Assembly: GCA_963823985.1 (NCBI GenBank)
Contig: CAWGNR010000006.1
Span: 88,618-128,617 of the forward strand
Origin: an uncultured Chloroflexia bacterium
GTDB lineage: Bacteria; Chloroflexota; Anaerolineae; Anaerolineales; Villigracilaceae
DNA: 40,000 bases
Direction: 5' to 3'
A program made the position numbers and the translations under genes. The stretch's first letter is position 1. Each line of letters starts with the position of its first letter. Shown here piece by piece: positions 3,091-24,388 of the stretch. The notes below the pieces were generated by a model, which did not search any database, was not told the DNA's origin, and saw only the letters and a list, made by a program, of their open reading frames with translations.

Positions 3091-3141
3091 TTTTTGTTCC
3101 CTTTCTCAAACTCACATTTTGCCGCCCAACGGCTCGCGTTA

Positions 3142-3404
3142 TTAGAATGTCCTTGTTTGGGACGTGGACTCCGCGTATCCTTAAGGGTGATTGATCGCCG
3201 GGAACGCGGAAGGGACGAGAGCGTTTGGGTTGTCCGCCCGCCGGTATGGGAAGGATCTCATTGAGAGTGAGATCCAAGCCCGCTGCGTTAATTGGACACC
3301 CGGCGGAGACTAATCTGGGACCGGCAAAGTGAAGCCGAGAGCCCGCATCGGTACCTGCAGCTCAAAACCCGAAACCCACGTCCCAAACATAAGAGGAGTT
3401 TAGC
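3142..3404 (+). ncRNA. candidate IS110 bridge (guide) RNA region in the left end
   Basis: A long-range stem TGTTTGGGACGTGG 3154-3167 / CCACGTCCCAAACA 3376-3389 encloses about 210 nt with an internal hairpin at 3253-3275. Blocks match the attC target in antisense (3198-3208, 3237-3246) and in sense (3285-3290, 3299-3306). The RNA ends are unknown. Confidence 0.4.
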
Positions 3405-4652
3405 ATGAAAAAAGGACAAGATACAAGAGGCTACGAAAGGTACATGGCACTGGATATCCACCGGGAATACATCCTGGTGGGAGGGTGGAATGAGGAGAAG
3501 GAGTGGGTTCTCACGCCACGACGAGTAAGCATCGAGAAGTTTGGCGAGTGGGCGAAGAAGAATATTCGTCCGGGGGATATAGTGGTGCTGGAAACGACCA
3601 CGAATGTATGGGCGATCTACGACATTGTGGCGCCGTTGGCGAGCCGGGTCTTGGTGGCGAATGCTGCTGAAGTCTGGGAACTCGCAGGCGCGAGGGTCAA
3701 GACGGACAAGGAAGATATCAAGCGGTTGTTGAAGCTGCTCGTGGGAGGCATCGTGCCCGAAGTGTGGGTGCCGCCGATGGAGGTGAGGGAACTGCGCGCC
3801 TTCATTTCATATCGGAGCCGGTTGGTAAGCACGGCCACAATGATCCGCAATCGCCTGCAGAGCTTGCTGCACAAACACAACTTGCTGCTGCCAGAAGAAG
3901 GCATTCTGGACCAGGGCTGGTGGAATGTGCAATCTTCGATCAGTGGGTTGGAGAAGATGCAGATCCGTCAGGAACTGGCTCTGTTGCAGGAAGTCGAGAA
4001 ACTGAAGATAGCAGTCGATGAAGAGTTGGAGCGCCAAAGCACAGGTCCAATCTGGGGCAAACAAGCCTTGCAGATCATGCAGCTGCCAGGCATAGGGTTC
4101 GTTGTGGCAATGACAGTGCTTTCTGCCATTGGAGACATCTCGCGCTTTGAAAATGCAAAGCAGTTGGTAGGCTATGCAGGCATCGGTGCAGGCGTGCACG
4201 ACAGTGGCAAAACTCACAAGGAAAAGAAGATCACCAAGAAGGGACGCCGGGAATTACGCTGGGCAATGGTAGAAGCAGCTTGGCGGGCAGTGCGGAGTTC
4301 GCCCTTTTGGAAGGCAGAATACGAGAGACACCTGCAGCGCATGCGCAAACCGAACCAGGCGATTGTGGTGGTTGCCCGGAAGTTACTAATCGCCATCTGG
4401 CATGTCCTGAGTAAGGAAGAGACCGATATCCATGCAACTGAGGAAGACCTGGCGTACAAAATGCTATTGCTCTCTTGGAGCTTGAGCGAGGACGTTCGCC
4501 AGGGTTTGACCTACAAACAGTTCGCCAAATACGCGCTGATGAAATTGGGTGTCGAGACGGACATTACGCGCTTTGTACGCAAGAATGTTCCAAGACGATT
4601 GGCGCCGAGAGATGAAGTGTTGGCGCGCATCAAGGAGCTGGGCCTAGCCTGA
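3405..4652 (+). CDS. IS110-family transposase (DEDD RuvC-like N-domain plus C-terminal Ser domain)
   Basis: 415-aa ORF with MALDIH, LETTTNVW, GARVKTDKEDI, VPEVWVPP, LPGIGFVVAMTVLSAIGDISRF, HDSGKTHKEKKITKKGRRELRWAMVEAAW and NQAIVVVARKLL. A GAGGAG RBS-like sequence lies upstream. Confidence 0.9.
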   Translation: MKKGQDTRGYERYMALDIHREYILVGGWNEEKEWVLTPRRVSIEKFGEWAKKNIRPGDIVVLETTTNVWAIYDIVAPLASRVLVANAAEVWELAGARVKTDKEDIKRLLKLLVGGIVPEVWVPPMEVRELRAFISYRSRLVSTATMIRNRLQSLLHKHNLLLPEEGILDQGWWNVQSSISGLEKMQIRQELALLQEVEKLKIAVDEELERQSTGPIWGKQALQIMQLPGIGFVVAMTVLSAIGDISRFENAKQLVGYAGIGAGVHDSGKTHKEKKITKKGRRELRWAMVEAAWRAVRSSPFWKAEYERHLQRMRKPNQAIVVVARKLLIAIWHVLSKEETDIHATEEDLAYKMLLLSWSLSEDVRQGLTYKQFAKYALMKLGVETDITRFVRKNVPRRLAPRDEVLARIKELGLA

Positions 4653-4896
4653 AAAAAGCGAAAGAAAAACCGAATAGAGCGCGAACAACCCCGGCACGAA
4701 GACTTGGATTGAGTTTATCGAAATCCTTGGATTGGACTTATTGAGATCAAAGGCTGACGGGGGTGGCGAAGCGTTCCCTAATAATGAAAGAAACGAACCC
4801 GAATAATAAAAAACTGCCGTGAGAAAAGGATCTCAATCGGCAGATCTTGTTTTAGATGTTTGGTGAAACCCAATTAGAAGGAATTTATCTCAGCAC

Positions 4897-4918
4897 TTGA
4901 CAACTGCAGTAATCGGTA
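4897..4918 (+). promoter_or_regulatory. outward-facing -35 box (TTGACA 4897-4902) at the IS110 right end; it pairs with TAGAAT at 3143-3148 after end-joining
   Basis: Joining the RE to the LE through a single TA core gives TTGACA-actgcagtaatcggtat-TAGAAT, a 17-nt spacer. Copy 2 has the same arrangement (7484-7489 with 5749-5754). Confidence 0.55.
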
Positions 4919-5057
4919 CCGGCGGCTGGAGGGACGAGACTTGCCCACGAAACGGACAAAACCTAAAGCCATGAAAAAGGTCATTTTGGCGGTGCGAATC
5001 CAGCCGTCCGCGTGCACGCCGTGTTGGCACGCCTTTTGACCTTAAGATTTTTATGTT

Positions 5058-5399
5058 TTACGGCTGCTCATGAATTAAGGTGTTTAATTTCTTGATAACT
5101 TCATTGAATTGTTCGGACGGCAATTTACAACTAAATCTGGCTTTCCTTGCTTTCCAATCAAGGCTTTTTACTTGATCAGATAGGATTGCGCCTTGGATTT
5201 CTAAACCTTCAGGCATCAAAACTTCAAATGGATAACCTTTGACCTGGCTTGTTATGGGGCAAAGAAGGGCTAAACCAACTTTCCCGTTATAAGCCTTTGG
5301 AGACAAAACTAAGGCTGGTCTGTGTCCTGCCTGCTCATGTCCTGCTTGTGGATTGAATGCAATCCAAACAATGTCGCCACTTTCGGGAACATATGCCAT
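5058..5399 (-). CDS. mazF: MazF/PemK-type endoribonuclease toxin
   Basis: MAYVPESGDIVWIAFNPQAGHEQAGHRPALVLSPKAYNGKVGLALLCPITSQVKGYPFEV. The internal ATG at 5397-5399 is chosen as the start because it lies 4 nt after the mazE stop. The track ORF extends to 5441. Confidence 0.85.
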   Translation of the reverse strand: MAYVPESGDIVWIAFNPQAGHEQAGHRPALVLSPKAYNGKVGLALLCPITSQVKGYPFEVLMPEGLEIQGAILSDQVKSLDWKARKARFSCKLPSEQFNEVIKKLNTLIHEQP

Positions 5400-5403
5400 A
5401 GTT

Positions 5404-5646
5404 TCACCAAGCTTCATTCCCCAAGGATGTTCCGGTGTCAATTTCGTTGTGAAGATTATCTTTTGTGATCCCTGTTAACAATTCATCAAGCGTCCAACTT
5501 GGCGCTGGGACTGGCGTGATAACAATCCTGCCTTTGACGATACTGATTTCTACCAATGAATCGTTTTCCAGTTGGGCATCAACGGCAAAGGCTTTTGGTA
5601 TTCGCAGGGCAAGGCTGTTGCCCCATTTTTGAACTTTTGTGAGCAT
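5404..5646 (-). CDS. mazE: MazE/AbrB-SpoVT-type antitoxin
   Basis: 80-aa ORF MLTKVQKWGNSLALRIPKAFA..., immediately upstream of mazF. Confidence 0.85.
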   Translation of the reverse strand: MLTKVQKWGNSLALRIPKAFAVDAQLENDSLVEISIVKGRIVITPVPAPSWTLDELLTGITKDNLHNEIDTGTSLGNEAW

Positions 5647-5747
5647 AAGGTTATCTCCTATTTGTTTCTACAATAAAGATACACCTTTTTGTTCAATTAA
5701 TCAAGCCCTTTTCTAATTGTTCAGGGGCGTGCCAACGGCCCGCGTTA

Positions 5748-7505
5748 TTAGAATGTCCTTGTTTGGGACGTGGACTCCGCGTATCCTTAAGGGTGATTGA
5801 TCGCCGGGAACGCGGAAGGGACGAGAGCGTTTGGGTTGTCCGCCCGCCGGTATGGGAAGGATCTCATTGAGAGTGAGATCCAAGCCCGCTGCGTTAATTG
5901 GACACCCGGCGGAGACTAATCTGGGACCGGCAAAGTGAAGCCGAGAGCCCGCATCGGTACCTGCAGCTCAAAACCCGAAACCCACGTCCCAAACATAAGA
6001 GGAGTTTAGCATGAAAAAAGGACAAGATACAAGAGGCTACGAAAGGTACATGGCCTTGATACCCACCGGGAATACATCCTGGTGGGAGGGTGGAATGAGG
6101 AGAAGGAGTGGGTTCTCACGCCACGACGAGTAAGCATCGAGAAGTTTGGCGAGTGGGCGAAGAAGAATATTCGTCCGGGGGATATAGTGGTGCTGGAAAC
6201 GACCACGAATGTATGGGCGATCTACGACATTGTGGCGCCGTTGGCGAGCCGGGTCTTGGTGGCGAATGCTGCTGAAGTCTGGGAACTCGCAGGCGCGAGG
6301 GTCAAGACGGACAAGGAAGATATCAAGCGGTTGTTGAAGCTGCTCGTGGGAGGCATCGTGCCCGAAGTGTGGGTGCCGCCGATGGAGGTGAGGGAACTGC
6401 GCGCCTTCATTTCATATCGGAGCCGGTTGGTAAGCACGGCCACAATGATCCGCAATCGCCTGCAGAGCTTGCTGCACAAACACAACTTGCTGCTGCCAGA
6501 AGAAGGCATTCTGGACCAGGGCTGGTGGAATGTGCAATCTTCGATCAGTGGGTTGGAGAAGATGCAGATCCGTCAGGAACTGGCTCTGTTGCAGGAAGTC
6601 GAGAAACTGAAGATAGCAGTCGATGAAGAGTTGGAGCGCCAAAGCACAGGTCCAATCTGGGGCAAACAAGCCTTGCAGATCATGCAGCTGCCAGGCATAG
6701 GGTTCGTTGTGGCAATGACAGTGCTTTCTGCCATTGGAGACATCTCGCGCTTTGAAAATGCAAAGCAGTTGGTAGGCTATGCAGGCATCGGTGCAGGCGT
6801 GCACGACAGTGGCAAAACTCACAAGGAAAAGAAGATCACCAAGAAGGGACGCCGGGAATTACGCTGGGCAATGGTAGAAGCAGCTTGGCGGGCAGTGCGG
6901 AGTTCGCCCTTTTGGAAGGCAGAATACGAGAGACACCTGCAGCGCATGCGCAAACCGAACCAGGCGATTGTGGTGGTTGCCCGGAAGTTACTAATCGCCA
7001 TCTGGCATGTCCTGAGTAAGGAAGAGACCGATATCCATGCAACTGAGGAAGACCTGGCGTACAAAATGCTATTGCTCTCTTGGAGCTTGAGCGAGGATGT
7101 TCGCCAGGGTTTGACCTACAAACAGTTCGCCAAATATGCGCTGATGAAGTTGGGTGTCGAGAAAGACATCACGCGCTTTGTGCGTAAGAATGTACCAAGG
7201 CGATTAGCGCCGAGAGATGAAGTGCTGGCGCGCATGAAGGAGCTCGGCTTAGCCTGAGAAGTAAGCCCGAAGAACAACTGAATAAAGAATGAACAACCCC
7301 GGCATGAAAACCTTGGATTGAGTTTATCGAAAACAAAGGGCTGACGGGGGTGGCGAAGCCTTCCCTATAAATGAAAAATACTGTCCCAAAAAACAAGAAG
7401 CTGCCGTGAGAGAAGGATCTCGATCGGCAGATTTTGATTTGGATGTCTTGTGAAACTGGATCAGAAAGATTTTATCTCAGCACTTGACAACTGCAGTAAT
7501 CGGTA
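5748..7505 (+). mobile_element. IS110-family insertion sequence, copy 2 (transposase start damaged)
   Basis: The left end 5748-6010 is identical by eye to 3142-3404. The coding region is near-identical. The 3' non-coding region 7258-7505 is clearly more diverged than the rest. Confidence 0.85.
6011..7257 (+). pseudogene. IS110-family transposase, N-terminal frameshift removing the first catalytic Asp motif
   Basis: Copy 1 has ATGGCACTGGATATCCACCGG (MALDIHR). Copy 2 has ATGGCCTTGATACCCACCGG at 6051-6070, which is 1 nt shorter and carries substitutions. The frame from ATG 6011 stops at about 6130. The remaining 391-aa ORF (6082-7257) lacks LDIH. Confidence 0.7.
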
Positions 7506-7624
7506 CCGGCGGCTGGAGGGACGAGACTCGCCCACGAAACGGACAAAACCCAAAGCTACGAATAAAGCCATTTTAGCGGTGTGAATCCAGCCGTCCGCGT
7601 GCACGCCGTGTTAGCCCGCTTGTG

Positions 7625-8328: not shown

Positions 8329-8456
8329 GGCTAACGGCTCGCGTTACCGGCGGCTGGAGGACGAGACTCACCCACGAAACGGCCAAACCCCAAGGCCACG
8401 AAAAAGCCCATTTTGGCGGTGAGAATCCAGCCGTCCGCGTGCACGCTGTGTTAGCC
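8329..8456 (-). repeat. attC-like site, subfamily A (A3), intact
   Basis: GGCTAACGGCTCGCGTTACCGGCGGCTGG...CCAGCCGTCCGCGTGCACGCTGTGTTAGCC. Confidence 0.8.
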
Positions 8457-9296: not shown

Positions 9297-9419
9297 GGCT
9301 AACGGCTCGCATTACCGGCGGCGGTGAGAACCAACCGATTTAGCGGGAAAAGGTTTTCGTTCAGATTCCGCCAATTTGACGGAGCCAGTACCGCCGTCCG
9401 CGTGCATGCATTGTTAGAA
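9297..9419 (-). repeat. attC-like site, subfamily B (B2), intact
   Basis: GGCTAACGGCTCGCATTACCGGCGGCGGT...ACCGCCGTCCGCGTGCATGCATTGTTAGAA. Confidence 0.8.
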
Positions 9420-10105: not shown

Positions 10106-10234
10106 TTCTAACGGCTCGCGTTACCGGCGGCTGGAGGGACGAGACTCGCTCCCAAAACGGACAAAACTCAAAGCCACGAATAATGCCAATTTGACGGTAC
10201 GAATCCAGCCGTCCGCGTGCACGCCGTGTTAGGC
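10106..10234 (-). repeat. attC-like site, subfamily A (A4), intact
   Basis: TTCTAACGGCTCGCGTTACCGGCGGCTGG...CCAGCCGTCCGCGTGCACGCCGTGTTAGGC. Confidence 0.8.
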
Positions 10235-11736: not shown

Positions 11737-11885
11737 GGAATAATAAACCTAACACCATGACTGGACAAGAAGCCTAACGGTTTGCGTTAGTGGTTGGCGG
11801 GCGGGCTTGGATAATGCCTAAGAGCAGGGAAAACCCAAAGCCAGAAAAATGCTTGTAAATCGCGCAGAATCCGGCCAATCCACTG

Positions 11886-13819
11886 GTAGGGTCAGGGAAT
11901 GGCGCCTGGGCATAAGCCTGGTTTCCATTCCCTGCCACCTCGAACCGGACGTGAGGTTTTCCCTCACGCGAAGCGGAGCTCTCCGACAACCTTCTTCCTG
12001 CGGCTTTCAAGGTTAGACTGCACATATTCCGGGTAGGTAGAAGAATTCTAAACCCTGTTGACGTAGTAAGGCTCTAAAGGTAAGTTCATCCCAGTGTCCA
12101 CGCGATCCCAGTTTTGAGCGCAGCCATTGTTCCAGACGATAGCGGACATAGCGGTCAAGTTGCTGGAATTTCAGGGTACTGTTCCCAAGCCGGAAGTAAT
12201 TCCGCCAACCGCGAATGATCCGATTGAGAAACTTTATTACTTCAGATAAGGGATTACTCAACCGCATTCTTTCAGTGATAAGGTGGATTTTACTGCGAAT
12301 GGCTTTCATGGCTTTAGGAGCGGGCCAAATGTAGGGCAGGAGCTTACCACTCTTTCTTGCTTTCTTCTTGTGGAAGTGAAAGCCGAGAAAATCGAAACCA
12401 TCTCGACCCATGTCCACAATTCGGGTTTTCGTGGGATGAAGTGTGAGTTTCAAAATATACATGATTTGCTTGACCTTTTGCAGGGCAGTTTCAGCCTCCC
12501 GTTTTGACCGACAGATGATGACGAAATCATCCGCATATCGAAACAGTTTGCCGAGAGAAGAATATCGTTCTGCCCAATACATATCCAGTACATGCAGGTA
12601 AATGTTAGCTAACAGGGGGCTGATAACACCGCCTTGAGGAGAACCTATTTGGGTAACGTTCTGTACACCATCTTCCATGACACCCGCTTTCAGCCATAGA
12701 CAAATGAGTTTCAGTACTCGCCGGTCACTAATCCGCCTCTTGAGCAGAGACAGGAGCATTGAATGGTCTATTGTGTCGAAGTAACTCTGTATATCGGCAT
12801 CAACCACCCACCAGCCAGCGATGAGAGACTTTTTCACTTCGGATACGGCCTGTTGTGCGCTCCGTTTGGGACGGAACCCATAGGAATTTTCTCGGAAGTT
12901 GGCTTCAAAGATCGGTTCGATCACAAGCTTACATGCCTGTTGCACCACGCGGTCACAAACCGCGGGAATTCCCAGCGGCCTTTGTTTGCCATCAGGCTTC
13001 GGGATGAAGACCCGTAACACTGGCTTCGGGCGATATGTACCTGCTTTCAGGTCTTGCGCAATCAGATAAAGAAACTGTTCTACTCCCTCCCGTTCCACAT
13101 CTTCGATGGAGACACCATCTACTCCGGCGCTGCCACCGTTCCTGCGGACTTCTTCCCAAGCCTGGCTCAGAATGTCAGGCCGGAATATGCGGTCATAGAG
13201 TGCATGGAACCGACGGTTCCTGTTCCTCTTGGCCGTCAGGTATAGTTTGCGCTGGAGTTCTCGTGATTTGTCTTGTGGTGGAATTGGCCTTGCGGCATGC
13301 ACCGTCACTTACTTCCTCGCTGAACCTGGTTGAAGTAGAGACCCTTTCCTCCTGACGAGTTCTGTTGTCTCGTCAATCAACGGTACTATGGTCTCCTCCG
13401 ACTTCTCATCTGGCTAAAATCTTAGGATTTCACCTTGCGGCTTATACCTGCGGTTACACTGTTTCTGTATCAGCGACCAGATGAGACCTCTCCTGTTCCA
13501 TCGCCTGCTTTCACAACATCCCATACTCCCTACACCGGAGAGTTCTTGACGGCTGCTTTTCAGGGTCTTCGCCGCTTCTGTTGCCTTCGCCATGCGTGAC
13601 AGGCTCGGCTCTCTCTTGCTCCCCTTGCGGGGCTAACATGTCGGTGCTGCAAGTTTCACTTTATGTTACGGACTGCTGTTTTGCTTCCCTTTCTCAAGGA
13701 GTTACAACGCTTCGGCACATCCGGTCACCCCGATGCACCGGTTGCCTGCTACCTGACGGCCTGACCCTTATCAGGACTGGACTTTCACCAGCTAGCAGAC
13801 GATGACTTTCAGGACACAC
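11886..13819 (-). mobile_element. group II intron (ORF-containing, no endonuclease domain evident)
   Basis: On the minus strand the 5' end reads GTGTGTCCTGAAAGTC. A domain V-like hairpin CGCGTGAGGGAAAACCTCACGTCCG is followed by a domain VI-like hairpin ending ...CCCTAC. The RT/maturase ORF lies inside. Ends are +/- a few nt. Confidence 0.75.
12013..13308 (-). CDS. group II intron reverse transcriptase/maturase
   Basis: 431-aa ORF with NGGSAGVDGVSIEDV, RPLGIP, SYGFRP, QGGVISPLLANIYL and FRYADDFVIICRS (YADD), plus a C-terminal maturase-like region. No HNH tail is evident. Confidence 0.9.
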   Translation of the reverse strand: MTVHAARPIPPQDKSRELQRKLYLTAKRNRNRRFHALYDRIFRPDILSQAWEEVRRNGGSAGVDGVSIEDVEREGVEQFLYLIAQDLKAGTYRPKPVLRVFIPKPDGKQRPLGIPAVCDRVVQQACKLVIEPIFEANFRENSYGFRPKRSAQQAVSEVKKSLIAGWWVVDADIQSYFDTIDHSMLLSLLKRRISDRRVLKLICLWLKAGVMEDGVQNVTQIGSPQGGVISPLLANIYLHVLDMYWAERYSSLGKLFRYADDFVIICRSKREAETALQKVKQIMYILKLTLHPTKTRIVDMGRDGFDFLGFHFHKKKARKSGKLLPYIWPAPKAMKAIRSKIHLITERMRLSNPLSEVIKFLNRIIRGWRNYFRLGNSTLKFQQLDRYVRYRLEQWLRSKLGSRGHWDELTFRALLRQQGLEFFYLPGICAV

Positions 13820-14425
13820 CACGCTTTGTTCGGCGGCTCTTATTACTGAAAGATTACATTGATAATGCAACCATCAAAAAAGCCAGACGTGCGAACGCAT
13901 TGGCAAGCACATGCAAACTGATACTTAAGCGAATGTCGCGCTTCCACATAACGATATAGCCCAACGCAGTTCCCAATAAAAACACGGTGAGAAAACCAAA
14001 TAGTTGCCAACTATGATAAAGTCCAAAAAATAAGCCACCAACAAGCGGAGTCCAAGCCCCATAGCGTGAAATACGAGGTAGAAGGTAGCCCCTAAAATAT
14101 AATTCTTCAATCCAAGGTAGAACGATTCCCGTTACGACAAGTTGAAATGCGAAGGTAATAACCAAGATATTCTTTGTATAGGCAAGATATTGAGATTGTT
14201 CTTCAAGAAACATCCATTTGGGCAATCCAGAAAAAAGTCGTTCTGTCAAAAAGGCATTGATAGGAGTTATTAGTGTTATTAGCAAGAAAACGATAATAAA
14301 TGCGCCGATAAAAACGAGAGCAAACACGCTCCAAGGCACTTTCTCTCGATAAAGTACAATGCCATTCAGGCTCAATCGCCCATTCAATTTTTTGCCTTCA
14401 TAAAACATAATTCCCAATAAAACTG

Positions 14426-16996: not shown

Positions 16997-18968
16997 GTCG
17001 CAATGGGGTTGATTCCCCATATTATACCGGCGTGCGGCTTTCCCGCGCCGGGCGACCCCCGCTGCCTTGCCCTGAATGAGGGAACACGACCTTACTCTAA
17101 GTCAGTTGCCCATATAAAGACACCAAGCCCATGCGGGAAAGGTGTTTGATCAGCCAGCGCCGGTTGTCGCCGCGCGAGATACGTTTGAACTTCATAGAAC
17201 GCAGGCGAGCCCGGATCCAATTGTCGAGAAGCGTGAATTGATCTTTGACCGAGGCAAAATGTGTAGCAAAGTAACGGGCAAACCCAATGAGAACGCGGTT
17301 GAGCTTTTGAATAGCTTCCAGGCCGAAGTTATGGTGGCGAACGGTGAGGGAGCGCACCCGTTCCTTGAATTTCTCTATGGACTTTTGGCGGACAGAAACG
17401 CGACGGCGCGAGAGATGGAACCCCAGGAAGTCGAACCCTTCGACAAAGTTGGTGATCTTTGTTTTAGTGGGGGACAAGCTGAGGCCCAAGTCCTGCCGGA
17501 TGATATTGTCCACGAAAATCAGAGCTTGTTTGGCTTGGGCGTGGCTGCGGCACAAGACCACGAAATCGTCGGCGTAGCGCACGAAGCGGTAGCCAGCTTG
17601 TGTCAATCGTTGGTCGAGGACATCCAGGACGATGTTCGCCAGCAGGGGCGAAATCACACCGCCTTGGGGAGTGCCGGAAAGCGTAGGGAGGAAAGAACGA
17701 TCTTCCATTACGCCCGCCGAGAGAAACTCGCGGAGGATGCATAGGATATTACCGTCGGCAACCCGTTCAGCCACCTGGTTCAGGATAAGGATGTGGGGTA
17801 TATTATCGAAGAAGGCTTGGATGTCAGCATCCACGACCCATTTGTAACCAGCTCTATGGGCAGTAATAACAGCTTGAACTGCCTGATGAGCATTACGACC
17901 AGGGCGGAAACCAAACGAGCGCTCAGAGAAGTGTGGCTCGAAGATGGGTTCAAGGAGCGAACGCACAACTTCTTGAGCCACGCGGTCTCTGACAGTGGGG
18001 ATGCCCAACGGGCGTAGTTTGCCTTGCCCTTTGGGGATATAGGCACGGCGGAGGGGAGCGGCGTGGTAGGACCCCTTGTGTTTGAGGTCGAACATCAGGG
18101 CGGCAAGGTTGTCGTCCAGGTTGGCTTCAAACGAGCGGATGTCTACCTTGTCGACTCCGGCTGCTCCGCGATTGCGCTTAACGGCCTGGAAGGCACGGCG
18201 CATACGAGCCATGTTGATTTGTCCGGTCAGGGAATGGGATTTACGGCGTTGGTCGGGCAACAGACTCTCCTTGCAGAGAGGATGTGTTGTGAAGTAACAG
18301 AGGTTGAACCAGCGGGGCATTCTCACTTCGAGCGGCGTCTTTTCCGGTCAGCAGGATTACCCGCCTGCCCTGGCGGGCTAGGCCAGGGAAACAAGCCAGG
18401 CGGATGAGAAATGGCATCTCCATGCTGGGAAACATACCAGAACGAGAGAGTATCAGCCTTTTCTGGAAACTCCTGTTGCCTCACGGCAGACAGGTACAGC
18501 CCTTCGTTACTCTGAATGAGCAGTAACTACTATAGCTGTGCTGACTACCCCAAACTGACCGGCCAGCAGGAGTGACCGGACAGACCGCAGCATAGGGAGG
18601 TCACTTCGCACAGCTTACATCGTCCCGATGTCCTTCGGGATAGACCTCCGTTACCCAAGCCTCTGACTGACACTGTCCAGGGCAAGGGACTGCGTGGGTT
18701 CTCAGTTGGTTAGCACACTATCCTTTTATGACCGTGAAGACACCAAGCACGCTCCAGGTAGGACGACCCTAACTGCGTGTGGGAAGTCCTGGCAATTGTC
18801 GGTTACCAATGCTTCAGCCTTAGGCGCAGCCTGGCATACCTGGACCCGCCGAAACGGCCTGCCCTGAGCTTGTCGAAGGGTGCCTCCCCAGTCACCCTGT
18901 GGCTTGCCCACTTCGCGACTACTCCTTGCGGGGTAGCCCTGGGAACTATGTGGCCAGCAGTTCCGCAC
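16997..18968 (-). mobile_element. group II intron (second, different copy)
   Basis: On the minus strand the 5' end reads GTGCGGAACTGCTGGCC. A domain V-like hairpin CCGGCGCGGGAAAGCCGCACGCCGG has a 2-nt bulge. A domain VI-like hairpin ends ...TTGCGAC. The RT ORF lies inside. Ends are approximate. Confidence 0.7.
17097..18326 (-). CDS. group II intron reverse transcriptase/maturase
   Basis: 409-aa track ORF with NRGAAGVDKVDI, RPLGIP, SFGFRP, QGGVISPLLANIVL and VRYADDFVVLCRS. The true start is probably the internal MARMRRAF at 18212. Confidence 0.9.
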   Translation of the reverse strand: MRMPRWFNLCYFTTHPLCKESLLPDQRRKSHSLTGQINMARMRRAFQAVKRNRGAAGVDKVDIRSFEANLDDNLAALMFDLKHKGSYHAAPLRRAYIPKGQGKLRPLGIPTVRDRVAQEVVRSLLEPIFEPHFSERSFGFRPGRNAHQAVQAVITAHRAGYKWVVDADIQAFFDNIPHILILNQVAERVADGNILCILREFLSAGVMEDRSFLPTLSGTPQGGVISPLLANIVLDVLDQRLTQAGYRFVRYADDFVVLCRSHAQAKQALIFVDNIIRQDLGLSLSPTKTKITNFVEGFDFLGFHLSRRRVSVRQKSIEKFKERVRSLTVRHHNFGLEAIQKLNRVLIGFARYFATHFASVKDQFTLLDNWIRARLRSMKFKRISRGDNRRWLIKHLSRMGLVSLYGQLT

Positions 18969-20487: not shown

Positions 20488-22187
20488 GAGACTGTCGAAA
20501 AAGTGTTTTTTCAAGAGCAAACCCCGGCCGGGCGATGACTGGAAGCGCAGTTTCCTGGCCGGAAGGCAAGGAGACTGGGGATTTGATCCCCCATGGGGCT
20601 AGTGGAGCGCCCCAAAAGAGTGGATTTTGCCGATATTATGTACTATAGCGAATAACCTCCATTGTACATCCACCTTAGATTTGGAACGTAGCGTGAATTG
20701 ATTCATGCGTTTTTGGACGCAGATATTGGCAAAGACCGGTTCAACGATCCCCAGTCGCCTGCCATAAATGCGCTTGCCCTCATCACTATCGATCTTGGCT
20801 TTCATCGCATCGATCAGGTTGGGGGATTGCCTCTCAACTTGAATGGAAAGATTGCGGCGTACAGTATTTGCCTTCTTCAAGCAACGTGCCCTCAAAGGAC
20901 AGGCAGCGCAATCTTCAGGGCGAGCATGGTAGAGATCATAGGTGCGATGGCGGTTGACCTGGTTGCGAGCATAGCAGGTCAATTCCTTCCCTTGCGGACA
21001 ACGATACGCCTGTTTGTCTGGATCGAACGAGAAGTCAGAAACAGTGAAGAGACTCGGCTTGGCGTCTGGACGCTGCCGGCCGTGGATGCCGTCCTTGAAA
21101 CGTTCTTGCTCGGCAAAGCGTGGATCGCGTGTGCGGTATTGGATGTCGGGGATGTAAGCATCGATCTTTTCATCTTTGCAGATCTTCAAGCTGTTGAGCG
21201 AGTGATAGTTGGGATCGGCGGTCAATTGCTTGCCTTGAAAATAGGTTTCATCTTTTCCGATGGCGACGGCGTTTTTTTTTGCGCTATCCAACATGGGCTT
21301 AAGATTTTCGTGATCCTGGCTGGCGAAGGCTTCCGCAGCGAGAATGACCTGATGCTTGGAATCGACCAGCGCCTGCGCGTTGTAGCCCTGGATGACCCCA
21401 TGAGAAGAAGGCATCTTCACCGATTCGTTGTCGATCACATTGCTTTGGATCTCCTTACCTTCGCTGCCGCGCTTCGGTTCCCGATCCTTTAGAAATTCAT
21501 TGAGCCGCTCGACCTGCCGCTGGAAGCGTTGTTCGCGCTTCTTTTGACGTTCGATTTCAACTTGAGGATGTTGATCTGCCTGGGCATGTTCTTCCATCAC
21601 GCGCTGGAGTTTTTCCTGCAGCTTATCACGCTTGTGTTTGAGTTCATCGAGCGTGCCGCTCCATTCTTTGGAGACATTGGCAGAGAGTTTGACGCCATCG
21701 AGAGAAAAGTGCGTGCCGCCCAGCAAATCCAATTCATCGCAGACCGTGAGAATATCGCTGAAGATGGAAGAGATCTCTTTTTGCATGGAAGACACAAAGG
21801 CGGCAATCGTGCTGTGATCAGGAGCATACCCATAAGAGAGCGCAATGAAGAGGATGTTTTCGTGGCAGGCGCGTTCGATCTGGCGGGAACTGATCATGCC
21901 TTTGGCGTAGGCTAGCAGGATGACCTTGAGCAGGATCTTGGGATGGATGGCGGTTGCGCCGGTCTCGTCGTTGTTGTAGCGCGCATCAAAGACCGACAGG
22001 TCGATATGTTTCTCCACCAATTGGCTGATGGTGTGCTCTAGCGTACCTGGGACAAGTTGGTCCTGCAGGGAAATCGGGAGCATGACCAATTGATCTTCAT
22101 TGCATGGTTTGAATTTTGCCATAGGTTCCTCTATCTCATAGAACCCCCTAGCTTTGCACTAGATTCTCCCACTTTTTCGACAGGCTC
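20488..22187 (-). mobile_element. IS1182-family insertion sequence
   Basis: 18-bp terminal inverted repeats GAGACTGTCGAAAAAGTG (20488-20505) and CACTTTTTCGACAGGCTC (22170-22187), 17/18 matching. It is flanked by AAC/AAC and contains a single 507-aa transposase ORF. Confidence 0.8.
20599..22122 (-). CDS. IS1182-family DDE transposase
   Basis: 507-aa ORF. The N-terminus MAKFKPCNEDQLVMLPISLQDQLVPGTLEH...HPKILLKVILLAYAKGMISSRQIERACHENILFIAL matches the family pattern as I recall it. Confidence 0.8.
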   Translation of the reverse strand: MAKFKPCNEDQLVMLPISLQDQLVPGTLEHTISQLVEKHIDLSVFDARYNNDETGATAIHPKILLKVILLAYAKGMISSRQIERACHENILFIALSYGYAPDHSTIAAFVSSMQKEISSIFSDILTVCDELDLLGGTHFSLDGVKLSANVSKEWSGTLDELKHKRDKLQEKLQRVMEEHAQADQHPQVEIERQKKREQRFQRQVERLNEFLKDREPKRGSEGKEIQSNVIDNESVKMPSSHGVIQGYNAQALVDSKHQVILAAEAFASQDHENLKPMLDSAKKNAVAIGKDETYFQGKQLTADPNYHSLNSLKICKDEKIDAYIPDIQYRTRDPRFAEQERFKDGIHGRQRPDAKPSLFTVSDFSFDPDKQAYRCPQGKELTCYARNQVNRHRTYDLYHARPEDCAACPLRARCLKKANTVRRNLSIQVERQSPNLIDAMKAKIDSDEGKRIYGRRLGIVEPVFANICVQKRMNQFTLRSKSKVDVQWRLFAIVHNIGKIHSFGALH

Positions 22188-22327
22188 AACGGCTCGCATT
22201 ACCGGCGGCGGTGAGAACCAACCGATTTATCGGGAAAGGTTTTCGCTCAGAACCAGCCATTTTAACGGAGCCAGTACCGCCGTCCGCGTGCATGCATTGT
22301 TAGCTGGCGCTTTGACCGAAAAACACT

Positions 22328-22657
22328 CTATTGATCTTGAAGCGCTGTTTCCAAAACTTCTGTAACCCAACCATTAAGGCTTTTATCTTTCAACTTGGCT
22401 TGAATATAGGCTTTCCGATGTAACTCGGCAGGCAAACGGAGGACGAATTTTCCCGAAAATGGCTTTTCTGGGGACTTACCACGCTGAGCGCAGAAATCAA
22501 GATAATCATCAACTGACTCCCGAAATGCCTGTTGAACTTCTTCAACCGTTGTGCCTTCAAACGTAATGACATCGCGGACATTGATCACTTCCCCGAATAA
22601 AATGCCCGCTTCCTCATCAATTTCAACCTTACCGATATACCCTTTATATTCCATCAT
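22328..22657 (-). CDS. hicB: HicB-family antitoxin
   Basis: 109-aa ORF with YKGYIGKVEIDEEAGILFGEV and a C-terminal RHH-like LRLPAELHRKA. It overlaps hicA by 4 nt. Confidence 0.8.
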   Translation of the reverse strand: MMEYKGYIGKVEIDEEAGILFGEVINVRDVITFEGTTVEEVQQAFRESVDDYLDFCAQRGKSPEKPFSGKFVLRLPAELHRKAYIQAKLKDKSLNGWVTEVLETALQDQ

Positions 22658-22908
22658 GGCTTTACTCCTGCCGCTTCAAGAAACCTGCGAATGGACTTCA
22701 CTGCACCTTTATTGATTTCTTTACGCGGATGAGGACGATGAAACACGGCCCTCACATCTTTCAAAGCAACACGAACGCGTGAACCGCTGCCTTCTGAAAT
22801 TTCAGCGCCTAGAGCAACAAAGAGAGCTTCGACATCCCGCCAAGCAATGTTGGCTCGCTCAGGCTTTTCGAATATGGCTTGTAACGTTTTGCGGTGTTTT
22901 CGGTCCAC
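22654..22908 (-). CDS. hicA: HicA-family mRNA interferase toxin
   Basis: 84-aa ORF with RKTLQAIFEKPERANIAWRDVEALFVALGAEISEGSGSRVRV. Confidence 0.8.
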   Translation of the reverse strand: MDRKHRKTLQAIFEKPERANIAWRDVEALFVALGAEISEGSGSRVRVALKDVRAVFHRPHPRKEINKGAVKSIRRFLEAAGVKP

Positions 22909-23198: not shown

Positions 23199-24388
23199 CT
23201 AGCGACCAGACAGTTTTAGAAATAGGCACAAAGAGAGACGCGAATTGAAAAAGCGTTGACAAGACATCTCTCGGTAAAACGCAAACCGATCTGAAAGATA
23301 CTCAGATCGCGACGATCTTTACGGTCCACGAGATGACGCAAACCTTGATGGATAGTGCGACCGCCAGATGAAACCAGCCAGACGTACAGAAAGGCTACTG
23401 CCAGGGTCAATCTCGATAGCCGCAAAAAGCTGTGAAGCATGGAACACTCCAGATCAAAACCATGTTTTTTCATATCACCGAACATTTCTTCAATCCACAT
23501 CCGGCGTTTATAAAAGCGGAGAGCGGTTTGCAAATCAGGCAAATTGGTCGCCAGGCACCAGGGTTCTTTTTCACCAGATTTCCAATGCACCAGCAAGTTA
23601 GCCGGATAAATGTGTGTCTGTGACAATTCTCTTTTTCCAAGCCATACGCTCTGACCGGCTTTTTGGACGTAACTTCCAAAGGGCACCCACTGGTTTTCAG
23701 TCTGTGACCAGACCAACGTATCTGATTTTTGGCGTAAAACGTAGTACCAATGCCATTTGTCCAGTTGTTTTAGCACTTTGACAGCTCCAAATTCGGTATC
23801 ACCGACCAGAAAAACGGCGGCTCCACGCGGAATGAGCGTTTTTACATAAGCAAGTAACGCGATCTGTTTGCTGCCTGTGCTATGTCCGCGCACATACTTG
23901 ACCCAGGTCCAGGCGATCGGGATGGCACGTTTGCGATAGGCCAGGCTGACCATCAATAATTGATGACCAAAACCAATTTTGGTACCATCTACGATCAGAT
24001 GGATTTCTCCAAGGCTCGCCAGCTGTTCTGCAAGCCATTGAAGAGCGACCGGCTTATACCAGTCACGAACACGAATGGCTGGATTGTCGAGAAAACGCTC
24101 AAACCGTTTCACCGTACTTTGCAACTTTGCTTTCCCAGGTATTTTTCCAGCGATCCGGCTCAGGTAAACCGAACGGCTCTGGTAGATCCCGTACATGAGC
24201 AAAACAAAATTCCGGACTTGGGTAACTCTTTGCTCTGGACGCAATTCACGAATTCGCTGAATCCATGTATGATACAGTTGGTTGGTCGGCATGGTTTTCT
24301 CCTGGCAATCTGTTTTCTCGCAAAAACAACTTTACCCGGTTTTGCCTGCCGATCAACCTTTTCATTTGCTAAAGTGTCTGGTCGCTAG
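23199..24388 (-). mobile_element. IS4-family insertion sequence
   Basis: Terminal inverted repeats CTAGCGACCAGACAGTTTTAG (23199-) and CTAAAGTGTCTGGTCGCTAG (-24388). It contains a single transposase ORF. I see no clear target duplication. Confidence 0.8.
23216..24292 (-). CDS. IS4-family DDE transposase
   Basis: 358-aa ORF with LIVDGT, FLVGDTEFG and YKRRMWIEEMFGDMK (the Y-2-R-3-E-6-K signature). Confidence 0.85.
   Translation of the reverse strand: MPTNQLYHTWIQRIRELRPEQRVTQVRNFVLLMYGIYQSRSVYLSRIAGKIPGKAKLQSTVKRFERFLDNPAIRVRDWYKPVALQWLAEQLASLGEIHLIVDGTKIGFGHQLLMVSLAYRKRAIPIAWTWVKYVRGHSTGSKQIALLAYVKTLIPRGAAVFLVGDTEFGAVKVLKQLDKWHWYYVLRQKSDTLVWSQTENQWVPFGSYVQKAGQSVWLGKRELSQTHIYPANLLVHWKSGEKEPWCLATNLPDLQTALRFYKRRMWIEEMFGDMKKHGFDLECSMLHSFLRLSRLTLAVAFLYVWLVSSGGRTIHQGLRHLVDRKDRRDLSIFQIGLRFTERCLVNAFSIRVSLCAYF

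Follow-up and report, generated by a model that had tools for sequence, protein, structure and literature searches.

The stretch of DNA analysed here, termed the window, comprises 40,000 nt of contig CAWGNR010000006.1 from an uncultured Chloroflexia bacterium (assembly GCA_963823985.1). It carries an array of integron-type cassettes with attC-like recombination sites, two of which, A1 and A2, are each split by a copy of an IS110-type insertion sequence (IS). The original prediction placed the two copies at the identical TA of two different attC sites and in the same orientation, and direct reading together with pairwise alignment bears this out. The filled sites and the empty targets are arranged as follows.

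3124..3141: left part of attC A1, with the R-box GCCCAAC at 3124-3130, a spacer, the left target GCGT at 3136-3139 and the core TA at 3140-3141
3142..4916, + strand: IS copy 1, 1775 bp excluding the core, with an intact transposase gene, ends and a predicted guide RNA
4917..5035: right part of attC A1, with the core TA at 4917-4918 and then CCGGCGGCTGG...CCAGCCGTCCGCGTGCACGCCGTGTTGGCA
5730..5747: left part of attC A2, with TGCCAAC, GCGT at 5742-5745 and the core TA at 5746-5747
5748..7503, + strand: IS copy 2, 1756 bp, transposase inactivated
7504..7622: right part of attC A2, beginning with the core TA at 7504-7505
8341..8353, + strand: empty cognate (A-type) target GCGTTACCGGCGG, with other exact copies at 10118, 10979, 16223 and 19820
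9309..9321, + strand: empty near-cognate (B-type) target GCATTACCGGCGG, with further copies at 390, 9723, 19042 and 22196
C-type attC: word GCGTTAGTGG

With a slash marking each edge of the IS, the junctions of copy 1 read ...CCCAACGGCTCGCGT-TA(3140-3141)/TTAGAATG...AATCGG/TA(4917-4918)-CCGGCGGCTGG and those of copy 2 read ...GCCAACGGCCCGCGT-TA(5746-5747)/TTAGAATG...AATCGG/TA(7504-7505)-CCGGCGGCTGG. Both copies are on the + strand, between ...AACGG(C/T)(C/T)CGCGT-TA and TA-CCGGCGGCTGG. The bases adjacent to TA are T..C in the target (GCGT/TA/CCGG) and G..T at the IS ends (ATCGG/TA/TTAG) and, as these differ, what the two share is the dinucleotide TA and nothing more. Such a core, common to target and donor, is expected for IS110-family recombination, and there is no conventional target-site duplication. 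The six uninterrupted A-type sites that had been credited with an empty target are reduced to five when GCGTTACCGGCGG is required exactly. At two or fewer mismatches there were 14 matches, with 1.75 expected by chance. At 11775 an attC continues from GCGTTA into GTGGTTGG and is not the element's target. The right-arm word CCGTCCGCGTGCAYGC is conserved in 12 attC sites.

The repeats of the array are imperfect palindromes of 117-131 nt with ..YAAC and GTT.. boxes at their borders, and they show the consensus features of attC, namely RYYYAAC...GTTRRRY boxes, extrahelical bases on one arm and one site per cassette. Between them lie single open reading frames (ORFs) or toxin-antitoxin pairs on the - strand. 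When an attC is paired manually, the 5′ arm of the + strand is fully paired and T, C and C are left unpaired on the 3′ arm. The attC strand was assigned from the ORF orientation together with the arm that carries the unpaired bases, as the RYYYAAC/GTTRRRY consensus alone is ambiguous. Both indicate that the + strand is the attC bottom strand, which puts the insertion point within the L′ box, at a distance of 9 nt from the R′-box AAC. Relative to the cassettes, the IS lies in antisense orientation. The TA had also been placed in an unpaired spacer between two helices. Minimum-free-energy DNA folds locate it at the junction of a short GCG/CGC helix and the long CCGGCGGCTGG helix, so that the position at a helix junction is roughly right and the T of the + strand is unpaired; the A, however, is paired, and the fold energies are not significantly better than those of shuffled sequences (z -0.3 to -2.1).

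To compare the element with its relatives, we drew on a protein search, which returned thousands of homologues, and on a separate scan of one genome per species, which gave 68 loci; individual loci are cited below by L numbers. The left non-coding region of the element is significantly structured (fold z = -5.2), and the right non-coding regions of the two copies are not (z -0.9 and -1.2). The RNA predicted from the left end has the following parts.

3159..3384, + strand: predicted bridge RNA core, with the closing stem GGGACGTGG (3159-3167) and CCACGTCCC (3376-3384), from the fold z-score, RNAalifold and pair counts
3227..3301, + strand: target-binding loop, with an outer stem (3227-3236/3293-3301) and an inner stem TGGG/CCCG with a variable hairpin
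3237-3246, + strand: 5′ guide of the target loop, CCCGCCGGTA, complement of TA+CCGGCGG(G), the right target's top strand
3283-3292, + strand: 3′ guide of the target loop, CTGCGTTAAT, containing GCGTTA (left target plus core), which would pair with the bottom strand
3303..3358, + strand: donor-binding loop, from pair counts and compensatory changes in L009, L054, L041 and a distant clade
3306-3315, + strand: 5′ side of the donor loop, GAGACTAATC, containing CTAAT, complement of A+TTAG at the left IS end
3346-3355, + strand: 3′ side of the donor loop, CATCGGTACC, containing ATCGGTA, the right IS end ATCGG plus the core

RNAalifold applied to 33 left ends gave eight helices. In the consensus structure of these 33 relatives 94.3% of cells are paired, compared with 26-46% when the partners are slid, and double-sided changes occur in 27 of the 46 pairs, compared with 7-11; none of 500 shuffles reached the observed values. 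The RNA is laid out as the closing stem, a 5′ domain and two similar modules, each of which runs through outer stem, 5′ guide, UGGG, variable hairpin, CCCG, 3′ guide and outer stem. In module 1, CCCGCCGGUA complements TA+CCGGCGG over 9 nt and GCGUUA is identical to GCGT+TA, and the two guides together span exactly the 13-mer GCGTTACCGGCGG. In module 2, CUAAU complements the A+TTAG of the left end, while AUCGGUA corresponds to the right end plus the core. The complementarity of the window element thus amounts to nine contiguous bases with the right target, and six bases plus a U·G with the left target. A CCGCGT/ACGCGG hairpin considered for the 5′ domain was replaced by an AACGC/GCGTT helix that covariation supports. 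The right non-coding region was also considered as the seat of the guide RNA and was rejected, as its fold is not significant, it holds no guide matches and it diverges by 25% between two copies that share the same target.

Among the thousands of homologues, the top 120 are 86-91% identical to the transposase and are mostly found on IS-sized metagenome contigs; those that are named are Anaerolineales. Most of the 68 loci likewise belong to assemblies labelled Chloroflexota/Anaerolineales, and a few carry other labels. The close relatives (62-94% protein identity), about 35 in number, come from metagenome-assembled genomes labelled almost without exception Chloroflexota/Anaerolineales; in about 33 of these 35 the IS directly follows the A of ..YAACGGnnnGCGTTA and has the same orientation. 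These flanks come from other assemblies and support the original prediction that the element is an attC specialist; copies scattered in unrelated sequence, which would have spoken against it, were not what the relatives showed. The two exceptions are L015, which is truncated, and L023, whose site is not an attC and matches the guides at 6/7 left and 6/9 right non-core positions in addition to the shared TA core. The right flanks of the relatives vary (TACCGGCGG, TACCCGCTGG, TACTTGCT and TAGYGG..), and the attC right arm of L039 is, by eye, nearly identical to that of the window.

The guides vary with the flanks. The right guide tracks the right flank, as AGCAAG with CTTGCT in L042, GCGGG with CCCGC in L003, and CGCCGG with CCGGCG in the window and L039. 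Similarly, the left guides GCGTTA, GGTGTTA, GGTTTTA, GGGGTTA and TTGTTA each stand beside a matching left flank. When the flanks were permuted among the 32-33 unique pairs, the observed complementarity was reached in none of 20,000 permutations for either guide. The donor guides also compensate for changes at the IS ends: a left end GTAG occurs with CUAC (L009), a left end CTAA with UUAG (L054) and a right end ATCAG with AUCAGUA (L041), and a clade with CTAG carries CUAG/CAAG.

In distant relatives (about 50% identity) both the RNA scaffold and the TA core are retained, and the left guides, GGGGTTA and similar, correspond to flanks such as ..GGTGGAGCGGGGGTTA/. Beyond the element the sequence resumes as TAGGY.., which places these insertions at the opposite end of attC, within the terminal GTTAGGY box. 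In L006 (2246-4080; 4196 onward) a close-type and a distant-type element occupy one attC, 115 nt apart and co-oriented, with the close-type element at the left end; in L008 (5235 onward) the two types lie in neighbouring attC sites. Some arrays are heavily colonised, as in JABFGC010000002.1 (Chloroflexota; L011, L013, L016, L021, L046, L049 and L051), which holds at least nine copies, four of them within 35 kb (1.79-1.83 Mb).

A B-type site differs from an A-type site at one left-target position (G to A), opposite which the guide G would form a G·T wobble. Both filled and empty sites are present in the window, as had been pointed out with a view to defining target rules. However, with 7 A and 5 B sites available, chance alone would put both of two insertions in A with p = 0.32, and the window itself therefore cannot show discrimination between A and B. 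A metagenome scan for GCATTA/TTAGAATG.. junctions, following the suggestion that occupancy of B-type sites be checked, found six, of which L073 and L071 are attC-type and four lie in other contexts. Both target guides of L073 are those of the window element, and L073 sits in ..CCCAACGGCTTGCATTA/IS/TACCGGCGGCGGGGGAGAAC, a B-type site; the occupied B-type junction of a metagenome relative with the window guides reads GCATTA/../TACCGGCGGCGG. As L073 occupies such a site with the guides of the window, B-type sites are usable. This occupancy fits a G·T wobble at the differing position, and likewise fits the tolerance of G-U wobble at the left-target interface that has been reported for ISPpu10 (bioRxiv 10.64898/2026.03.19.712850).

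Other features of the guide region were seen among the relatives. A 27-nt hairpin, CCCAGCACCTGCGGTACTGGGCAGGTG, is inserted directly after the left-target guide in L001, L007, L014 and L056, with a variant in L011; these elements belong to different sublineages and carry it at the same spot of the target-binding loop. In L070 (~977-1130) the left end stops directly after the element's own left-target guide (GCTGCATTA/CCCGG...). At an Escherichia coli IS621 locus, L075 (~1575-1660), a full IS621 lies inside the left-target-guide DNA (ATCGGGCCT) of a partial copy. In the last two cases the guide-coding DNA, which resembles the target, seems to attract self-insertion or recombination.

The protein and the ends of the element were examined in the same way, and their features are listed below.

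3405..4652, + strand: transposase/recombinase gene, 415 aa, with ALDIH, LETT and KTDKED motifs and the serine motif HDSGK
3143..3148, + strand: TAGAAT, -10 half of a predicted circle-junction promoter, from the sequence and conserved in relatives
4897..4902, + strand: TTGACA, -35 half of the same predicted promoter, from the sequence and conserved in relatives
4752..4781, + strand: conserved right non-coding motif GGCTGACGGGGGTGGCGAAGCGTTCCCTAA, from comparison of relatives
6054..6062, + strand: inactivating patch in copy 2, a 1-nt deletion and two substitutions in 9 bp, with a frameshift at codon 17 and loss of the D of ALDIH

Membership of the IS110/IS1111 family, as originally proposed, is supported by a C-terminal Transposase_20 domain (PF02371; E 1.3e-24, 86.8 bits). 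The solved IS621 and ISCro4 recombinases give weak but specific matches to the transposase (27-34 bits) that include the SG serine motif, and HDSGK aligns with the YESGS motif of ISCro4. An exact-protein look-up returned no record. The left and right non-coding regions are each about 264 nt long, and a search for terminal or subterminal inverted repeats found none above chance, the best match of 6 nt being equalled in 389 of 500 shuffles. If the ends were joined, 14 nt of IS, TA and 1 nt would form the 17-nt spacer of TTGACA-17-TAGAAT. In 22 relatives TTGAC is invariant and at a fixed distance from the IS end, and in every relative examined the distance of each hexamer from its end is constant. 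We therefore predict a promoter across the joined IS ends, as in the IS110 family.

In the integrated state of copy 1, TAGAAT is paired only with a weak TTGCCG in the attC flank, at 18-nt spacing and with 9/12 promoter matches (window 3119-3148), and no comparable hexamer was seen by eye at copy 2; given this difference between the flanks, resident expression could differ between sites. The right non-coding motif, GGCTGACGGGGGTGGCGAAGCrTTCCCTAA in both copies, is kept down to about 60% protein identity, and its surroundings are not. A CTGCCG..CGGCAG hairpin followed by TTGTTTT was seen 3′ of the transposase gene, and the scanner recognised no intrinsic terminator there.

The two copies are identical over IS positions 1-1351 except for the three changes of the inactivating patch, and positions 1352-1775 contain 81 differences. 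The left end and predicted guide RNA of copy 2 are identical to those of copy 1. The clustering of the patch looks like one complex mutational event that inactivated the recombinase. The 3′ 424 nt resemble different relatives, copy 2 being 89% identical to L039 and copy 1 79%. On its sequence, copy 2 is a frameshifted mosaic pseudogene with 3′ 424 nt from a different lineage and, as its recombinase gene is broken and its ends and RNA are kept, it could move only in trans. Copy 1 looks autonomous.

In general, these observations point to an IS110-type element with a probable DEDD/serine recombinase whose insertion site is very probably chosen by a bridge (seek) RNA from its own left non-coding end. 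Two copies would lie at the same TA of two attC sites because the RNA encoded in the left end base-pairs with that attC sequence. Specifically, an RNA of about 230 nt (~3155-3390) would fold into two similar internal-loop modules, the first of which would read the 13-bp GCGTTACCGGCGG in the L′ box of the lineage's attC sites, and the second, likewise, the abutted IS ends (..ATCGG-TA-TTAG..). Recombination at the shared TA core would then give insertion in one orientation, antisense to the cassettes, and would separate the R′/L′ arm of attC from the remainder of the site. Excision as a circle would assemble the predicted promoter, which could drive the RNA and the recombinase. The 1.8-kb split of the R′/L′ arm should stop folding of the attC, and the neighbouring cassettes would thereby become a single fused unit, an effect that has also been proposed for IS1111-attC elements.

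Several observations weigh against this proposal. Complementarity to the right target is imperfect in many relatives, at 3-7 of 9 non-core positions, which implies either that the guide tolerates mismatches or that other determinants, such as attC structure or the protein, contribute. The related sequences are not independent, and the shuffle and permutation counts therefore overstate significance. No Rfam family matches the left-end RNA even at E <= 10, the only gathering-level Rfam match in the window being a group II intron. The circle-junction word ATCRGTATTAGAATG is absent from all 74 of 74 loci. The PF01548 (DEDD_Tnp_IS110) match of the transposase, at 27.3 bits, is below the Pfam cut-off of 29, and a precomputed match to PF01548 is present in most of the 86-91% identical homologues. 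Finally, the guide order is opposite to that of the experimentally characterised elements with an upstream RNA (IS621, ISEc21). The guide-flank switches are individually clear despite the relatedness that inflates the permutation figure.

The loose right-target complementarity, together with the fact that attC is a structured target and that a hairpin requirement has been reported for ISPpu10, would also suit a recombinase that itself recognises the folded attC hairpin or its sequence, with the left-end RNA merely a leader or regulatory RNA and the guide-like matches incidental. We consider this improbable, as guides and flanks change together, even in the switch of the distant clade to another attC position, the donor-loop segments compensate for changes in the IS ends, the non-attC site of L023 resembles the guides, and RNA dependence has been established experimentally for both IS110 and IS1111 types. 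It is just as doubtful that the filled sites represent a single insertion event, with one IS-bearing attC duplicated or copied by recombination within the array. Such copying would account for the near-identity of the first 1351 bp, which speaks for recent sequence exchange between the copies, but the flanking cassettes differ (alpha/beta hydrolase and MazEF at one copy, MazEF and DUF5677 at the other), the attC halves of A1 and A2 differ on both sides, and the 3′ 424 nt have their 81 differences and different nearest relatives. This pattern is most simply read as the independent insertion of two diverged elements whose 5′ part was later converted.

A known group of elements that target attC must also be considered. 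The IS1111-attC group was reportedly described by Tetu and Holmes in 2008. It is also cited to Post and Hall (2009), and its members (ISKpn4, ISPst6, ISPa25) have transposases of 330-350 aa, a seekRNA downstream of the transposase gene, and subterminal inverted repeats, which in IS1111 elements measure 7-17 bp, mostly 11-13, and are extended terminally by 7 bp and 3 bp (Siddiquee et al., 2024; PMC11187229). The window element shares with this group a probable DEDD-type transposase, a predicted RNA-guided site choice and orientation-specific insertion inside an integron attC that splits the site. In both, the guide complementary to the top strand precedes the bottom-strand guide, the order reported for IS1111 seekRNAs, and the 264-nt right non-coding region with its conserved motif would be long enough to invite the comparison. 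Nevertheless, it is scarcely credible that the element belongs to the group with a downstream seekRNA. It lacks the subterminal inverted repeats, its four guide segments are all located upstream of the transposase gene, no significant structure is seen in the right non-coding region, which diverges by about 25% between copies that share one target, and the transposase has 415 aa; with subterminal repeats, downstream guide RNA and protein length all at variance, we do not count it as a member. The relatives' assemblies are labelled Chloroflexota, in contrast to the Gammaproteobacteria of the IS1111-attC group. The target also differs, being GCGT-TA-CCGG in the R′/L′ arm for the window element and, for ISKpn4, CGGCTTGAA/CGAATTGTTAG as reported in a secondary table, a different attC position. 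From what we know of attC(aadA7), we take the ISKpn4 position to be in the L′′/R′′ arm.

The IS110-type elements IS621 and ISEc21 (Durrant et al., 2024, PMC11208160; Hiraizumi et al., 2024) offer a model for our proposal of an upstream bridge RNA. They have, as is predicted for the window element, a left-end RNA upstream of the recombinase gene, with a target loop and then a donor loop that each read both strands and overlap at a 2-nt core, a long guide on the 5′ side that directly abuts a UGG(G/A) stem, and a promoter split between the two ends. The window element has the long structured non-coding region upstream of the transposase gene that marks the strict IS110 group, and its loops, computationally, are complementary to both strands of target and donor junction and covary with them. 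It does not have the guide order of that group, in which the bottom-strand (left) guide is 5′ of the top-strand (right) guide. In the IS621 copy of L075 (E. coli), where the left flank reads ATCAGGCCT and the right flank CTACGCA, the 5′ strand (ATCGGGCCT) is in the sense of the former and the 3′ strand (TGCGTAG) is antisense to the latter, an order that agrees with Durrant et al. (2024; PMC11208160) and Siddiquee et al. (2024; PMC11187229). In the window element, by contrast, it is the right target and the left IS end to which the 5′ strands are antisense, and the 3′ target strand has the sense of the left flank. With this swapped order the 5′ donor guide would read the RNA-proximal IS end, the reverse of the situation in IS621. 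Further differences from IS621 are the core, which is TA and not CT, the long-range closing stem, the different 5′ domain, the 264-nt right non-coding region and a protein similarity that is marginal (27-34 bits). The predicted architecture is thus that of IS110 elements in the upstream position of the RNA, but the guide order is that of IS1111. The literature consulted on RNA position and guide order gives only two standard combinations plus unnamed exceptions.

Two further systems provide points of comparison. ISPpu10 is also IS110-type and its natural targets are likewise repeated, hairpin-forming intergenic sequences, but it is structure-gated and targets repetitive extragenic palindromic (REP) hairpins, whereas the window element targets attC (bioRxiv 10.64898/2026.03.19.712850). 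Group IIC-attC introns are another class of mobile element specialised on attC, but they are retroelements with an unrelated mechanism (PMC3001079).

Other mobile elements lie in the same array. A DDE-type IS (DDE_Tnp_1_6 and DUF772; window 20489-22188, ORF 20599-22122 on the - strand) with inverted repeats GAGACTGTCGAAAAAGTG and GAGCCTGTCGAAAAAGTG interrupts a B-type attC precisely at its R′-box AAC triplet, cccAAC/IS/AACggctcgcatta. In nine other assemblies (L002, L005, L006, L018, L040, L044, L050, L056 and L071) the IS110-type element has this IS end plus CAACGG as its neighbour on the left, and the DDE-type element looks like another attC-specific IS family, unrelated to the first. The cassette array further contains two group II introns (~11893-13821 and ~17000-18900), with reverse transcriptase ORFs on the - strand (12013-13308 and 17097-18326) and a match to RF02003 at 13661-13794. 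The first interrupts a third attC type (11775..., GCGTTAGTGGTTGG) between ..CCACTGG and CACGCTTTGTTCGG, and its sense strand coincides with the coding strand of the cassettes; for group IIC-attC introns, insertion into the bottom strand has been described. Given the DDE-type IS inserted at the attC crossover triplet and the pair of group II introns, the attC sites appear to offer landing pads to several mobile elements that are unrelated to one another. At about 22.9 kb the array comes to an end, where a HicAB cassette (22328-22908) adjoins a DDE transposase gene (23216-24292). No integron integrase domain or recognisable attI was found in the window, and the array may therefore be detached from its integrase.

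Insertion sequences that target attC fuse and immobilise cassettes and, to our knowledge, have been described for one IS1111 subgroup only, mainly in clinical Gammaproteobacteria. The RNA-guided mechanism and the choice of attC are thus of known kinds, and the lineage found in Chloroflexota assemblies is distinct from the described attC-targeting IS1111 group. We tentatively suggest, at somewhat less than even confidence, that it is an attC specialist independent of that group: an undescribed IS110-type lineage, abundant in metagenomes and, among the loci retrieved, almost confined to Chloroflexota-labelled assemblies, which combines an upstream bridge RNA with the IS1111 guide order and has been reprogrammed to at least two attC positions. 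These would be the L′ box (GCGT-TA-CC) in the close relatives and the terminal R box (GGGT-TA-GG) in those of about 50% identity, and both types can share one attC (L006). If this is true, the attC habit arose a second time, in an IS110-type lineage of environmental bacteria, and the target rule would be readable directly from the element's own RNA. The family would then constitute a natural reprogramming series in which a single scaffold and a single TA core serve many right-target guides and no fewer than two attC positions. It would also show that the order of the guides and the place of the RNA can be combined in ways other than those of the two characterised types, which would bear on models of bridge-recombinase evolution and on the choice of new scaffolds.

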